A stretch of DNA of 64,000 bases from Patescibacteria group bacterium UBA2135 (GTDB lineage Bacteria; Patescibacteriota; Minisyncoccia; Phycocordibacterales; UBA2135). The DNA lies in the NCBI GenBank assembly GCA_002327685.1, contig DCXN01000003.1, positions 6,981 through 70,980 of the forward strand, in the 5' to 3' direction. Shown here in pieces: positions 3,358-35,996 of the stretch (position 1 is the first letter of the stretch; each line of letters starts with the position of its first letter). The notes under the pieces are model-generated. The model saw nothing but the letters and a program-made list of their open reading frames with translations. It was not told where the DNA came from and made no database searches. The position numbers and the translations under genes were made by a program.

Positions 3358-3426
3358 CCGCCGCAAGGCCCGGCCTTACATGGGGATAACCTGTGCATAA
3401 ACCACCCCGCAAGGCCGGGCCTTGCG
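3358..3426. repeat. REP-like element, family 1 (copy 3)
   Basis: CCGCCGCAAGGCCCGGCCTTACATGGGGATAACCTGTGCATAAACCACCCCGCAAGGCCGGGCCTTGCG. Confidence 0.8.
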
Positions 3427-3499
3427 TAAGCTCCTCGCATGCCACACACAAAAAGCCCCTACAAAAGGGACTTTCCGCTCAAACCACTCAAAAAAACAA

Positions 3500-4586: not shown

Positions 4587-4900
4587 TAAAAATCATCACC
4601 CCCTCACTCGAAAATTAATTGGAAATGCTTCTTTTTATTCTCCTCTTTAAACTAATAAGAGCCCCCGCTCTTCGCTTAATTTGCCGTTCTCTTTCACGAG
4701 CATCCTGTTCTGATTTATACGCTTCATAATACACAACATCAAATGGCTTTCTATTTTCTGTTGATGACACATTTCCATTATTATGTTCTTTCACTCTTTT
4801 CTGTAAATCACTGGTATATCCAAAATATAAATCTTTATCTTTCAATGATTGTAATGTGTAGAAAAAGAACATAATAATTAATTTTCGAGTGATGGGGGTT
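4587..4900. mobile_element. Small element bounded by 24-bp terminal inverted repeats and carrying a GIY-YIG nuclease gene
   Basis: Left end CACCCCCTCACTCGAAAATTAATT (4587-4610). Right end AATTAATTTTCGAGTGATGGGGGTT (4876-4900). The same inverted repeats bound the non-coding element at 26880-27034. Confidence 0.55.
4615..4872 (-). CDS. GIY-YIG nuclease superfamily protein
   Basis: FFFYTLQSLKDKDLYFGYTSDLQKRVKEHN matches the GIY-x10-YIG...R...E...N pattern. 85 aa. Confidence 0.7.
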   Translation of the reverse strand: MFFFYTLQSLKDKDLYFGYTSDLQKRVKEHNNGNVSSTENRKPFDVVYYEAYKSEQDARERERQIKRRAGALISLKRRIKRSISN

Positions 4901-5123
4901 AAGAATTAAAAAGAGTCCTTCAAACAAAGGACCGGAGAAACGCTAGCCAACAAAATGGCTAACGAACAATTTCGACCTCGGCAGGACTTCTCGCGAGCTA
5001 CGCTCACGCGCCTACTGTCTCCGATCTTAGATAAAGTAAGTATATTCAATTTAGCCCCCTTGTCAATGCTTCAAATACTTAAACTTTAAATATTTAAACT
5101 CTTCCGTCTTTAACAAGAAACCA

Positions 5124-5144
5124 GCCGCCAATAAATTGGCGGCC
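5124..5144 (-). terminator. Putative terminator hairpin
   Basis: GCCGCCAAT-AAA-TTGGCGGC, with a T-rich tract on the minus strand. Confidence 0.4.
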
Positions 5145-5197
5145 GATAAGCCCATATCCATTAACCCCACTTCTAGCCATCTTCTTAAAATGACCAA

Positions 5198-5413
5198 TTA
5201 AGCGCGGTGGCCATGAACCGGACATCCTGGCCAAAACCTGTGAACACTCGGACAAGTACATTTATACTTCTTCCCCATTCTCTTTGTTTCTTTCCTCATC
5301 CTTTTCTTCATTTTTTTTCTTAACTCTTTCTTCGCCTCCTTCAACTCTTCCCTCATCTTTTTCTTCGCTTCTTTATTCAACTTTTCACCTAGCGTTTGGA
5401 CACCCTTCGCCAT
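5198..5413 (-). CDS. Small Lys-rich protein with a C-terminal Cys/His cluster
   Basis: 71 aa. ...KYKCTCPSVHRFWPGCPVHGHRA. A duplicated 90-bp leader lies directly upstream. Confidence 0.4.
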   Translation of the reverse strand: MAKGVQTLGEKLNKEAKKKMREELKEAKKELRKKMKKRMRKETKRMGKKYKCTCPSVHRFWPGCPVHGHRA

Positions 5414-5503
5414 GATCTTACTCCTCTAGTCTTAGGTTTATGTGAACCAATCTGTCACCTATATAACACAACTTACAATTTAACACCAGCGTTGCAAGAA
5501 AAT
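5414..5503 (-). promoter_or_regulatory. Duplicated 90-bp 5' leader (copy 1)
   Basis: Identical to 5824-5913. Ends ...AGACTAGAGGAGTAAGAT(C/T)AT-ATG, with a GGAG RBS. Confidence 0.55.
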
Positions 5504-5625
5504 TACAAAAAAGCAGGCCGCCCGCTTCGCCACCACCCGCTCCGACGAGTCGGAGACGAGGCGAGAGGCAAGCAAACGACCCGTTACAAGACTTCTTCCC
5601 TATTCTCTTCATCTCTGTGTCTTTA

Positions 5626-5823
5626 TCAGATATCCATGTCATCAATCGACACCCTCATCCCCTCTGCCATTTTTTTATCCGCCTCTTCTTTCTCTTTTAC
5701 TTTAGCCAATTTACCACTATCCACCACCATGATCGAATTAATCCTATCAATCGTCTTCTCCATTTTCTCCATTTTTTTCTTTAATTCTGCCACTTGTACT
5801 TCAATCTCCTCCAAAGTCGACAT
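5626..5823 (-). CDS. Small coiled-coil protein
   Basis: 65 aa, charged heptad-like sequence. Preceded by the same 90-bp leader as the 5198-5413 gene. Confidence 0.4.
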   Translation of the reverse strand: MSTLEEIEVQVAELKKKMEKMEKTIDRINSIMVVDSGKLAKVKEKEEADKKMAEGMRVSIDDMDI

Positions 5824-5913
5824 AATCTTACTCCTCTAGTCTTAGGTTTATGTGAACCAATCTGTCACCTATATAACACAACTTACAATTTAACACCAGC
5901 GTTGCAAGAAAAA
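5824..5913 (-). promoter_or_regulatory. Duplicated 90-bp 5' leader (copy 2)
   Basis: Identical to 5414-5503. Confidence 0.55.
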
Positions 5914-5925
5914 AGGCAGACTACG

Positions 5926-5947
5926 AACAGTCTGCCCTCACATATCT
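5926..5947 (-). terminator. Rho-independent terminator
   Basis: GGCAGACT-ACGAAC-AGTCTGCC hairpin with a T6 run on the minus strand. Confidence 0.55.
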
Positions 5948-6285
5948 TTAGTCGAATGAATCTCAAATCCTTCATCCTGAACATCCTGAGCCCACCGCGT
6001 ATCTTTCCCAAGATACGGATTATGATCCTTACACACCCTATATTTCTCTAATTTTACACTTCCCTCACTTCCGCCACTTCGCAAATCACGTGATGCTGAC
6101 TTACCCGGCGGAATAAAAAAAACGGTAAATTGAGCTTTGTTTAAACATTTTTCTCCCGTATTCGTATGCGGACACTCGCAACAAATCTCCCGCAAAACCT
6201 TGCCCTTCCTAAATTTTCTAAACATCCTAAACTTTCTCAAAAAAGCAAACCAATTCCACAACATCAGCTTACCTCCTTTTTTCAA
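5938..6285 (-). CDS. Hypothetical protein (Cys-containing)
   Basis: 115-aa ORF containing CCECPH...C. Confidence 0.35.
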   Translation of the reverse strand: MKKGGKLMLWNWFAFLRKFRMFRKFRKGKVLREICCECPHTNTGEKCLNKAQFTVFFIPPGKSASRDLRSGGSEGSVKLEKYRVCKDHNPYLGKDTRWAQDVQDEGFEIHSTKDM

Positions 6286-6328: not shown

Positions 6329-6397
6329 CGCCGCAAGGCCCGGCCTTACATGGGGATAAACTGTGGAAAACCTACCCCGCAAGGCCCGGCCTTGCGG
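6329..6397. repeat. REP-like element, family 1 (copy 4)
   Basis: CGCCGCAAGGCCCGGCCTTACATGGGGATAAACTGTGGAAAACCTACCCCGCAAGGCCCGGCCTTGCGG. Confidence 0.8.
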
Positions 6398-7272: not shown

Positions 7273-7341
7273 CGCCGCAAGGCCCGGCCTTACATGGGGA
7301 TAACTTGTTGATAAACTGCCCCGTAAGGCCGGGCCTTGCGG
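7273..7341. repeat. REP-like element, family 1 (copy 5)
   Basis: CCGCCGCAAGGCCCGGCCTTACATGGGGATAACTTGTTGATAAACTGCCCCGTAAGGCCGGGCCTTGCGG. Confidence 0.8.
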
Positions 7342-7955: not shown

Positions 7956-8024
7956 CGCCGCAAGGCCCGGCCTTACATGGGGATAAGTTGTTGATAACCC
8001 ACCCCGCAAGGCCGGGCCTTGCGG
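7956..8024. repeat. REP-like element, family 1 (copy 6)
   Basis: CGCCGCAAGGCCCGGCCTTACATGGGGATAAGTTGTTGATAACCCACCCCGCAAGGCCGGGCCTTGCGG. Confidence 0.8.
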
Positions 8025-14129: not shown

Positions 14130-14199
14130 CCGCCGCAAGGCCCGGCCTTACATGGGGATAAGCTGTTGATAAACTACTCCATAAGGCCGGGCCTTGCGG
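14130..14199. repeat. REP-like element, family 1 (copy 7)
   Basis: CCGCCGCAAGGCCCGGCCTTACATGGGGATAAGCTGTTGATAAACTACTCCATAAGGCCGGGCCTTGCGG. Confidence 0.8.
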
Positions 14200-16957: not shown

Positions 16958-17031
16958 CCCCCGCAAGGCCCGGCCTTGCAAGTTATCCACAGGTTATCCC
17001 CCAAAAACCTCTCTCAAGGCCGGGCCTTGCA
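16958..17031. repeat. REP-like element, family 1, inverted variant (copy 9)
   Basis: CCCCGCAAGGCCCGGCCTTGCAAGTTATCCACAGGTTATCCCC...CAAGGCCGGGCCTTGC. The central part is the reverse complement of GGGGATAACCTGTGGATAA. Confidence 0.7.
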
Positions 17032-17116
17032 GAAAATCATCCACTCAAAAACCGCCTCACTTATTAGCAAGGCGGTTTTTAATGATTTGCTTTATCTTCG
17101 TATTAGCTTCTTTTCT

Positions 17117-26879: not shown

Positions 26880-27034
26880 CCCCCCTCACTCGAAAAATTA
26901 TTGACGACGTAGAGCGAGGTAAATGGACGGGAAAGGTCTGACCTTGAGGAGGAGCGAAGCGACGGGAGAAGGTCGGACCTTGCGGAGTCCATTTGCCGAG
27001 CCGAGGAGTTAGTAACTTTTCGAGTGAGGGGGTG
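26880..27034. mobile_element. Non-coding MITE-like element with the same inverted repeats as the GIY-YIG element, carrying a family-2 repeat core
   Basis: Inverted repeats CCCCCTCACTCGAAAA (26881-26896) and TTTTCGAGTGAGGGGG (27017-27032) enclose GACGGGAAAGGTCTGACCTTGAGGAGGAGCGAAGCGACGGGAGAAGGTCGGACCTTGCGGAGTCCATTTGCCGAGCCGAGGAG. Confidence 0.55.
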
Positions 27035-34738: not shown

Positions 34739-34873
34739 TCAGTCAAATTAAAAATGTAAAGCTCAAAACGAAAAATGACGGAGTAAAATGTAAAAATTAG
34801 AAAAATTTTAAAATTGTGGTATTTTGAATTTTAAATTGTAGTTTTGATTTTTGATTCTTGCACTTTGAGTTTA
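34739..34873 (-). promoter_or_regulatory. Duplicated ~130-bp leader (copy upstream of rpsR)
   Basis: About 90% identical to 35363-35489. Ends with GAGTGGAGCGAAGGAAC-ATG. Confidence 0.5.
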
Positions 34874-35347
34874 CTAGAACGGTATATCCCCTGGTTTAAT
34901 ATCTTCTTCCGGATATTCAATCGTGTCAAGCTCTTCTTTTTTTTCACCAACTGACTGCGTCTGTCCGGCGGAATCTTTTTGCGAAGACTGGGTCGGTGCC
35001 ATACCACCACCTCCCCCACTTGACCTTGGACCAAATTGCACGCGATCTGCCACAATTTCGGTACGATATTTCTTTTCCCCATCCTGTCCATCCCAACTTC
35101 TGTTTTGTATTCGTCCTTCAATTAAAGCAGAGCTTCCTTTGCGCAAATACTGTGAAACAGTTTCAGCTTGCCGTCCAAATACAACTACATTATGAAAATC
35201 AACACTTTCTTGCTGTTTACCGTCTTTGTCTTTCCAGACACGATTAGTTGCAATAGAAAAATTGGTAACAGGTGTACCTGATGGAAGTGATTTCAATTCA
35301 GGATCACGCGTAAGATTTCCAAATATGAATGCTTTGTTTAGATACAT
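34874..35347 (-). CDS. ssb: Single-stranded DNA-binding protein
   Basis: OB-fold (LNKAFIFGNLTRDPELK...), Gly-rich tail and C-terminal DIPF. Confidence 0.85.
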   Translation of the reverse strand: MYLNKAFIFGNLTRDPELKSLPSGTPVTNFSIATNRVWKDKDGKQQESVDFHNVVVFGRQAETVSQYLRKGSSALIEGRIQNRSWDGQDGEKKYRTEIVADRVQFGPRSSGGGGGMAPTQSSQKDSAGQTQSVGEKKEELDTIEYPEEDIKPGDIPF

Positions 35348-35362
35348 GTTCCTTCGCTCCAC

Positions 35363-35489
35363 TCAGTCAAATTAAAAATAAAAAACTCAAAACTAAAAAT
35401 GACAGAGTAAAGTGTAAAAATTAGAAAAATTTTAAAATTGCGGTATTTTGAATTTTAAATTGTAGTTTTGATTTTTGCGCTTTACGTTT
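35363..35489 (-). promoter_or_regulatory. Duplicated ~130-bp leader (copy upstream of ssb)
   Basis: About 90% identical to 34739-34873. Confidence 0.5.
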
Positions 35490-35996
35490 TTAGTTTCCTA
35501 CAAGTTCTTCAATCGTCTTATCAAGTTCTTCTTCCGAAAGCTGTTTTCCAGGCTTCTGCACCTTTTGCTCTTTTGTTATGCGGCCTGTTGGCTGTTTCGG
35601 TTTAAGAAACGTCATCTTCTTTACTGATGGCAGCTTCTCGCGAGCTATTTTCACTAAAATAAATCGCAATATATGTTTATTATGCTTTAATTCTTTGTCA
35701 AATTCAAGAAGATCTTTTGGAGACATCTGAAATTTAATCCAACCAAAAAGCGCGGTATCAAAATACTTTCGCTTTTGACCCATAATTTTAGACATAGAGT
35801 ACGCAAGAGACATAACTCTAGGCATCTGATCAGAGACCATAGCACCGCTATGTTTTTCAATACCGTCCTTAAGAACCCCCACTTCCTGTGGAATTTCTTC
35901 TTCAGAAAGTGTTGGCAATAGATGATAACCGAGCTCGTATAAGCGCGGTTCTTTGTCGTCTATATTCTCTTGTAATTCTATATCAACTTCTGTCAT
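35490..35996 (-). CDS. rpsF: 30S ribosomal protein S6 with a C-terminal extension
   Basis: YELGYHLLPTLSEEE... S6-like N-terminus. Position is the conserved rpsF-ssb-rpsR order. Confidence 0.65.
   Translation of the reverse strand: MTEVDIELQENIDDKEPRLYELGYHLLPTLSEEEIPQEVGVLKDGIEKHSGAMVSDQMPRVMSLAYSMSKIMGQKRKYFDTALFGWIKFQMSPKDLLEFDKELKHNKHILRFILVKIAREKLPSVKKMTFLKPKQPTGRITKEQKVQKPGKQLSEEELDKTIEELVGN

Follow-up and report, generated by a model that had tools for sequence, protein, structure and literature searches.

An Identical Leader before Two Small Genes of a Marine Patescibacterium Probably Reflects Tandem Duplication and Gene Fission

Introduction

Why do two small genes that look unrelated carry the same leader? 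We examined this question in a stretch of 64,000 nucleotides (nt) with a GC content of 41.7%, hereafter the window, from Patescibacteria group bacterium UBA2135 (GenBank assembly GCA_002327685.1, contig DCXN01000003.1, positions 6,981 to 70,980 of the forward strand). Two open reading frames (ORFs) of the minus strand, P2 (65 amino acids, aa) and, downstream of it, P1 (71 aa), are each preceded by a leader of about 90 nt; the copy before P1 is called copy A and the copy before P2 copy B (Table 1). An original prediction from the sequence alone described the two proteins as unrelated and suggested either a mobile promoter/leader cassette or a shared cis-regulatory RNA, such as a target of a small RNA (sRNA) or a riboswitch-like element. 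Our comparison with a sister species points to another answer. It is quite likely that a unit of promoter, leader and gene was duplicated in tandem and that the two copies were then truncated in complementary ways, that is, by gene fission.

Extent and Copies of the Leader Repeat

A repeat scan of the window found a direct repeat of 96 nt with 2 mismatches (5407-5502 versus 5817-5912) at a spacing of 410 nt. Base-by-base comparison showed that the exact run covers 88 of 88 nt (5415-5502 = 5825-5912), with mismatches at 5410, at 5414 and from 5503 outward. The identical leader before two small genes is thus present as the original prediction claimed, with small corrections: its ranges (5414-5503 and 5824-5913) were one base too long at each end, but the C/T difference at 5414 had been rightly seen. 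Both copies stand in tandem on the minus strand. The T run of a terminator-like hairpin immediately precedes each copy, whose end reads AGAGGAG-TAAGAT(C/T)-ATG, with the same AGAGGAG-N7-ATG spacing at P1 and P2.

The 83-nt core of the leader had two exact matches in the window, and none of 100 dinucleotide shuffles gave any. No third copy, even a partial one, was found in the 64 kb, either with the 83-nt pattern at up to 3 mismatches or with blastn-short. The whole arrangement is 100% identical in more than 10 independent contigs, which come from SPAdes and MEGAHIT assemblies, from Tara scaffolds and from the metagenome-assembled genome GCA_002688065.1; they represent several samples, all marine and mostly of Tara Oceans. 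Because the same arrangement recurs without a difference across independent assemblies, an assembly artefact is excluded.

The terminator scan found hairpins with T runs after P2 (5528-5510), after P1 (5147-5120) and before leader copy B (5939-5912), and the view that each gene has its own terminator was borne out. The proteins themselves gave few clues. Searches of Pfam, NCBIfam, PHROGs, PADLOC and Protein Data Bank (PDB) sequences returned only weak low-complexity or coiled-coil chance matches for P1 and P2, and in a word-indexed protein search each matched only itself. When the two were compared directly by BLASTP, the E-value was 0.05, which is not significant.

An Intact Gene in a Sister Species

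A 23-mer from the leader had one match among metagenome contigs, namely MPMB02186772.1 (hereafter L022). This contig belongs to a sister species, a Paceibacteria-like species represented by the loci L022, L023 and L026-L033. L022 is colinear with the window at 77-90% nucleotide identity, and at about 84% across rplL-rplJ. Its locus holds one leader and one ORF of 115 aa, after which come the same terminator as in the window, the L10 leader and rplJ. The same single-gene structure was seen in L023 and L026-L033, and in at least 13 contigs from other samples the sister locus invariably has one gene and one leader.

Both window proteins align with this one protein. By BLASTP, sister residues 55-115 correspond to P1 residues 9-71 (59% identity, E = 7e-20) and sister residues 39-71 to P2 residues 28-57 (E = 4e-5). 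At the DNA level, L022 6601..6280 (hairpin, leader and N-half) corresponds to window 5936..5668, and L022 6316..6040 (C-half and terminator) to window 5390..5108 with 77% identity. A HMMER search with P1 against 1.84 billion representatives gave exactly one genuine relative, the sister 115-aa protein (P0123); the other three of the four matches were rejected as translated tandem-repeat artefacts. Because of the alignments of the N- and C-parts and the colinearity and synteny with the sister, we conclude from sequence comparison that a single gene, still intact in the sister species, corresponds in its N-terminal half to P2 and in its C-terminal half to P1. Their relationship is visible only through this intact orthologue, since the direct pairwise comparison is not significant. 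The description of the two proteins as unrelated therefore fails against the protein and DNA alignments.

The conserved features of the protein are a long N-terminal helix, a Lys-rich second helix and a C-terminal CxCx9CPxH motif in which RFWPGCPVHG is identical between the two species. As a guess, the product is predicted to be a small metal-binding, nucleic-acid-binding protein. An AlphaFold2 model of the intact protein, built on a three-sequence alignment, is indicative only (mean predicted local distance difference test score 70.9, predicted template modelling score 0.37); it places helices at residues 2-53 and 60-93, and the predicted break at 54-59 coincides with the split point. In the more distant relatives L017-L021, whose L10 proteins are 60-66% identical, no homologue of the gene or of the leader was found upstream of rplJ.

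The intact gene bears directly on the idea that a promoter-leader cassette moved independently before two different genes. The operational screen of Matus-Garcia et al. (PMC3488235) would pick up this pair, including its coding sequences (CDSs) that show no detectable mutual homology. However, there are only two adjacent tandem copies and no other in the window, and both CDSs are halves of one gene. The sequence 5' of the leader, that is, the 3' end of a hairpin and its T run, was duplicated along with it, and the only true match in the collections scanned, whose representative genomes seem not to include the source genome of the window, is the single orthologous copy of the sister. We regard an independently moving promoter as extremely improbable here, and the mobile cassette of the original prediction found no support.

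The wider searches used three sub-patterns of the leader, each against one or two of the species-representative genomes, the Joint Genome Institute (JGI) metagenome contigs and IMG/VR. A 24-mer had no match in the JGI contigs or in IMG/VR. A 20-mer had three matches in the species-representative genomes, which were set aside as unrelated sequences of the Roseobacter group (family Roseobacteraceae). The original prediction had named a simple tandem duplication found only here and lacking conservation in relatives as the finding that would speak against it. The first part agrees with our results, since the leader is repeated only here and in tandem; the second does not, as the leader is conserved at about 85% in a relative, where it is single.

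An integron attC/cassette array was also considered, prompted by small ORFs in the same orientation split by a repeat. It was rejected because the repeat has two copies only and contains the Shine-Dalgarno sequence and ATG of the downstream ORF, and because no strong hairpin forms in the leader.

Traces of Duplication and Proposed Fission

In the sister gene, the DNA alignments of the N-half and the C-half have 37 nt in common (L022 6316..6280). This mid-gene segment (GESLSEEAKKNM in the sister) is found both at the end of P2, where it reads KEKEEADKKM (segment M'), and near the start of P1, where it reads GEKLNKEAKKKM (segment M). Its presence in both ORFs requires a duplication, and the mere insertion of a stop and a start codon would not suffice.

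A second trace is a relic of the C-half in the 3' untranslated region (UTR) of P2. Compared with the coding DNA of P1, it is identical at 18 of 19 positions over its core and at 22 of 26 over the full span, a score reached by 3 of 1000 shuffles. The relic was also recovered by the repeat scan and by blastn-short, and its similarity to P1 is higher than that to the sister gene.

The hairpin upstream of copy B matches that of L022 at 20 of 24 positions in local alignment (0 of 1000 shuffles reach the score). At the hairpin 5' of copy A, only the 3' end GGCCTGCTTTTTT matches the putative ancestral upstream hairpin (12 of 13 positions; 18 of 1000 shuffles reach the score). A hairpin that is whole at copy B and represented only by its 3' end at copy A marks the 5' edge of the duplicated unit. 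Finally, the first two codons of P1, ATG GCG, are those of the sister gene; they are followed by the mid-gene region, so that about codons 3-50 are missing, in frame. Besides the single intact gene at the syntenic position of the sister and the two colinear halves in the window, the locus shows a repeated regulatory region, an overlapping segment, a relic and a partial upstream hairpin, all of them traces of a duplicated unit.

On this basis we propose the following course of events. The ancestor would have had one gene of about 115 codons with one promoter-leader, located immediately before the operon of the L10 leader and rplJ; its product would have begun with a long N-terminal helix, joined by a short linker to a second, Lys-rich helix, and would have ended in a Cys/His tail. 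In the lineage of the window a unit would have been duplicated in tandem that started with the 3' half of the terminator hairpin 5' of the leader and took in the T run, the promoter, the 5' UTR, the Shine-Dalgarno sequence and the gene. The upstream copy would have kept the N-half, lost the frame after the mid-gene segment and gained a hairpin terminator, and the downstream copy would have kept ATG-GCG and lost about codons 3-50 by an in-frame deletion, leaving the C-half only. The two halves would then share a promoter-like region, an unstructured 5' UTR of about 40 nt, a Shine-Dalgarno sequence and a start codon, each with its own terminator, and both would be expected to be transcribed and translated separately at similar rates.

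Identity of the Two Leader Copies

The two leader copies differ at 0 of 88 positions, whereas the window and the sister differ at 13 of 88 (14 of 89 if the base before ATG is included; Fisher's exact test, p = 1.5 × 10−4). In the other paralogous remnants, namely the mid-gene segment and the relic, 10 of 50 positions are different (p = 2 × 10−5). The 13 interspecies differences show that the leader is not intrinsically invariant, and the changes in the other remnants show that enough time has passed since the duplication for differences to arise. All 13 differences from the sister leader within the 88-nt repeat are found in copy A as well as in copy B.

From these sequence comparisons, homogenisation of the leader by gene conversion is the most likely explanation. 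The leader is the only block that can still be aligned in register between the two units, after the decay of their surroundings. The edges of the conversion tract would be given by the two mismatches near ATG and by the break at the T run.

Function of the Leader

Two distinct leader sequences are known. In their interspecies alignment, a 36-nt core is the longest identical run (P about 0.005 under random placement of mismatches). The core contains an extended -10-like motif, TGTTATATA, which lies in the 5' half of the leader and is conserved in both species, and an imperfect palindrome, GTGA-N9-TCAC. The palindrome lies near the expected start of transcription, which is compatible with a putative operator.

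If the leader were a shared cis-regulatory RNA, that is, a riboswitch-like element or a common sRNA target, selection on its structure would have kept the copies identical. The invariance of the core between species and its place at the start of the putative transcript would suit this explanation. However, no Rfam family matched the leader at the gathering threshold or at an E-value up to 5, the only hits being chance ones on the terminator, and the fold of the whole leader (93 nt) has a z-score of only -1.23. The putative 52-nt UTR has a minimum free energy of -4 kcal/mol and z-scores of +1.0 to +1.35 in both species, which means that it is less structured than shuffled sequence. The core also overlaps the extended -10 motif and the palindrome, and a promoter or operator acting at the DNA level suits it at least as well. 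A shared RNA element therefore seems most improbable, and this second suggestion of the original prediction went the same way as the mobile cassette. Judged by its sequence, the leader resembles an ordinary promoter and not a riboswitch, and its 5' UTR of about 40 nt seems to be unstructured and efficiently translated. What did stand is a duplicated expression module, consisting of a promoter-like region, a short 5' UTR, a Shine-Dalgarno sequence and a start codon, which now serves two different ORFs.

On the plus strand, each leader copy contains a promoter-like CTGTCA-16-TACAAT (5452-5479 and 5862-5889), which in the sister reads CTGTCA-16-TATAAT. This site would drive antisense transcription into the upstream terminator region.

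Weighing of the Proposed Fission

Several points weigh against the proposed fission. Outside the leader, the paralogous DNA similarity of the gene bodies is not significant, since 47 of 500 shuffles score at least as high. The relic is a short one in AG-rich low-complexity sequence. The distances among M', M and the sister segment are roughly equal, with 18-20 of 24 positions identical pairwise by a hand count on the alignment, and the duplication cannot be dated from them. The gene family is confined to two species, and an outgroup that would show the intact gene to be ancestral is therefore lacking. The ratios of non-synonymous to synonymous substitution rates (dN/dS) against the sister gene are 0.25 (P1) and 0.42 (P2), higher than the 0.13 of rplJ, and the values for P1 and P2 rest on about 30 synonymous sites each with dS near 1. 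For the leader, no minus-strand sigma-70 -35/-10 pair above the scan threshold was found inside it, and promoter activity is suggested by the extended -10-like motif and by the position after a terminator.

The lack of an outgroup and the similar divergence of the three versions of the mid-gene segment would also suit the opposite direction of change, in which the state with two genes and two leaders is the older one and the sister 115-aa gene arose by fusion. A deletion between M' and M would have removed the tail of P2, the terminator, leader copy A and the head of P1. M' and M are direct repeats that flank exactly what the sister lacks, and a single recombination event between the two would produce the structure seen in the sister. 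However, an earlier full-length gene and a duplication are still needed to explain M' and M, the two leaders and the relic, which makes an extra step. Moreover, the relic resembles P1 (18/19) more than the sister gene, as would be expected if the duplication came after the species had split, and all 13 leader differences from the sister are common to both copies. We therefore regard fusion in the sister lineage as rather improbable.

It is also to be asked whether both products of the proposed fission are still functional genes. P1, P2 or both could be non-functional remnants that are open by chance, with the identical leaders due to a very recent event or to conversion. The family is an orphan one without a known domain, the hydrophobic stretch of P2 is altered and shortened relative to the sister, and a low-coverage contig (L006) lacks the P2 unit. 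The region is moreover rich in insertions and deletions, the cassette with a GIY-YIG gene and a neighbouring 115-aa ORF (5938-6285) both being absent from the sister. Nevertheless, the Shine-Dalgarno sequence, ATG and terminator are intact in both ORFs, dN/dS is below 1 in both halves, the Cys/His tail is almost fully conserved, the split falls within the predicted linker between the helices, and the arrangement is fixed and identical across many samples. The substitution pattern is compatible with some purifying selection on both halves, which would then still be functional. A broken gene is, in our judgement, unlikely.

At the other extreme, the split could be adaptive and dynamic. The halves would reassemble into the ancestral protein in a two-subunit version, the leaders would be kept identical for matched levels of the two, and the 88-nt repeats would reversibly delete or amplify the unit of the N-half. 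If this were true, it would provide a population-level on/off or dosage switch for one subunit, and it would fit the contigs L006 and L013. We consider it very unlikely.

The two contigs were noted as follows. In L006 (976 nt, 2.4x coverage) the upstream ORF is joined to P1 through one leader, and the 410-nt P2 unit is missing. L013 (529 nt) reads P2, terminator, leader and P2 again; its length equals 410 + 119 (MEGAHIT k = 119), as for a closed cycle. They were not relied on as proof of recombination from leader to leader, as an 88-nt repeat can produce both as de Bruijn graph artefacts.

Features of the Locus and Its Surroundings

The features of the locus are collected in Table 1.

Table 1. 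Positions of the leader copies, the two ORFs and the associated elements. Positions refer to the window unless a contig is named.
Feature	Position	Strand	Description
Leader copy B	5824..5912 (exact repeat 5825-5912)	minus	Promoter-like region, short 5' UTR, Shine-Dalgarno AGAGGAG at 5831-5837; up to P2 start codon
Leader copy A	5414..5502 (exact repeat 5415-5502)	minus	Shine-Dalgarno at 5421-5427; up to P1 start codon
P2, 65 aa	5626..5823	minus	N-terminal half of the proposed ancestral gene (predicted helix 1); mid-gene segment followed by a new tail of 8 residues, VSIDDMDI
P1, 71 aa	5198..5413	minus	C-terminal half; Lys-rich helix and conserved tail CxCx9CPxH
Sister ORF, 115 aa	L022 6130-6477	minus	Between Nfu_N-like gene/REP element and L10 leader/rplJ
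36-nt core, copy B	5843..5878	minus	TGTTATATAGGTGACAGATTGGTTCACATAAACCTA; identical in sister species
36-nt core, copy A	5433..5468	minus	Invariant between species
Mid-gene segment M' in P2	5668..5704	minus	KVKEKEEADKKM; homologous to the same sister residues as P1 segment 5354-5390
C-half relic in P2 3' UTR	5591..5616	minus	AAGAGAATAGGGAAGAAGT; after stop codon, out of frame, colinear with P1 coding DNA 5266-5291
Hairpin and T run	5912..5939	minus	GGCAGACTGTTCGTAGTCTGCC; directly upstream of leader copy B; orthologous to hairpin 5' of the sister's single leader
Long GC-rich hairpin and U run	5504..5583	minus	Ends P2 unit; fold -50.9 kcal/mol, z -2.65; found by terminator scan
P1 terminator	5120..5147	minus	Kept in sister species
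L10-operon context	4898..5066	minus	Promoter TTGACA-16-TATACT (5066-5039) and L10 leader (5042-4898), directly downstream of P1 terminator; fixes synteny with sister
REP-like repeats	236-302, 2002-2064, 3361-3427, 6331-6397, 7275-7341, 7958-8024, 14133-14199, 16961-17032, 20912 and others		

On the minus strand, P1 is followed by a promoter, the L10 leader, an 85-aa GIY-YIG ORF, rplJ and rplL. The L10 leader (4898-5042) matches RF00557 with 35.7 bits (E = 0.0013), below the gathering score of 44, and is supported by synteny. A similar stretch of promoter plus leader was found in the upstream sequences of L018 and L022. The Rfam model may contain too few versions of the L10 leader from the Candidate Phyla Radiation (CPR). 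Going by the names of the closest L10 homologues, the organism of the window is itself Paceibacteria/Parcubacteria-like and belongs to the CPR. Across the 64 kb, no Rfam family matched at its gathering score, and ARAGORN detected no gene for a transfer RNA or transfer-messenger RNA (tmRNA). A tmRNA or sRNA at 4900-5060 was considered and rejected, as ARAGORN found nothing there and the element is the L10 leader.

The GIY-YIG ORF (4615-4872, minus strand; PF01541, E = 1.3e-15) lies between the L10 autoregulatory leader and rplJ. It is flanked by 22-nt terminal inverted repeats, CCCC(C/A)TCACTCGAAAATTAATT, at 4599-4620 and 4876-4897, and the entire cassette, about 300 nt long, is missing from the sister species. 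The element (4599-4897) looks like a small mobile cassette inserted in the leader region of a ribosomal protein gene. A second pair of the same inverted repeats, with 2-3 mismatches, was found at 26881-27032; it encloses about 110 nt with an internal hairpin and no ORF, and it looks like a solo copy of the GIY-YIG-carrying element, similar to a miniature inverted-repeat transposable element (MITE).

A family of intergenic repeats resembling repetitive extragenic palindromic (REP) elements is built on the hairpin CCGCAAGGCCCGGCCTT, often followed by ACATGGGGATAA; it has 27 matches in the window against 0.02 expected. The sister contig L023 encodes a Y1_Tnp (PF01797) protein at 1058-1909, possibly a REP-associated transposase. 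Between a REP element and leader copy B there is a Cys-rich ORF of 115 aa (or 108 aa) on the minus strand (5938-6285), which had no family match. It is absent from the sister, where the REP element adjoins the hairpin and leader almost directly.

Elsewhere in the window, at about 34790-35470, short matches at an offset of 624 nt (34805/35429 and 34831/35455) lie beside minus-strand ORFs of similar size (34874-35362 and 35490-35996), which suggests another local tandem duplication.

Comparison with Known Systems

Matus-Garcia et al. (2012, PMC3488235) screened for putative mobile promoters as sequences of at least 50 nt with at least 80% identity, located within about 150 nt of the start codons of non-homologous CDSs, and found families of two members to be the commonest class. 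Putative mobile promoters were also reported by Nijveen et al. (2012, PMC3575422). The present pair resembles them in its 88 nt at 100% identity, or 96 nt at 98%, which end at start codons, and in that a pairwise search sees no homology between the CDSs. However, it differs from them in being tandem, 410 nt apart and arisen together with the gene that it serves, and it shows no sign of movement to an unrelated locus. This serves as a warning that screens for mobile promoters or shared leaders catch fission products unless an intact orthologue is sought.

The locus also resembles the concerted evolution of short bacterial duplicates by gene conversion, as the paralogues are identical while the orthologue differs by about 15% and the flanking remnants by about 20%. 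Here the conversion is one that we infer. Unlike the usual cases, the tract would be only about 90 nt long, homology has been lost on both sides of it, and it is regulatory rather than coding.

Gene fission by duplication and complementary degeneration is mechanism 3 of Leonard and Richards (2012), in the summary given in PMC5174107, which also presents the Geobacter pilin split into GSU1496 and GSU1497 as a proposed bacterial example. The present locus is probably a new example of this known evolutionary process, in an orphan gene restricted to one lineage. As the gene is tiny and confined to two species, its wider biological weight is small. Nevertheless, it would offer a clean case of bacterial gene fission in a CPR (Paceibacteria-like) marine organism with the scars of duplication still legible. 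It would also show how the downstream half of a split gene can gain a promoter, a ribosome-binding site and a start codon in one step, by inheriting the parental copy.

As in fission with differential domain loss, a gene that is intact in a relative appears here as two adjacent colinear genes, with traces of the duplicated unit and of the degenerated parts, and the split lies between structural elements. In contrast to the described cases, each half has the full and identical parental promoter-leader and its own terminator, so that the two would form separate transcription units and not an operon. Unlike those cases, too, this tiny orphan gene still bears readable scars, namely a mid-gene segment that occurs in both ORFs, a relic lying out of frame and a remnant of the upstream hairpin.

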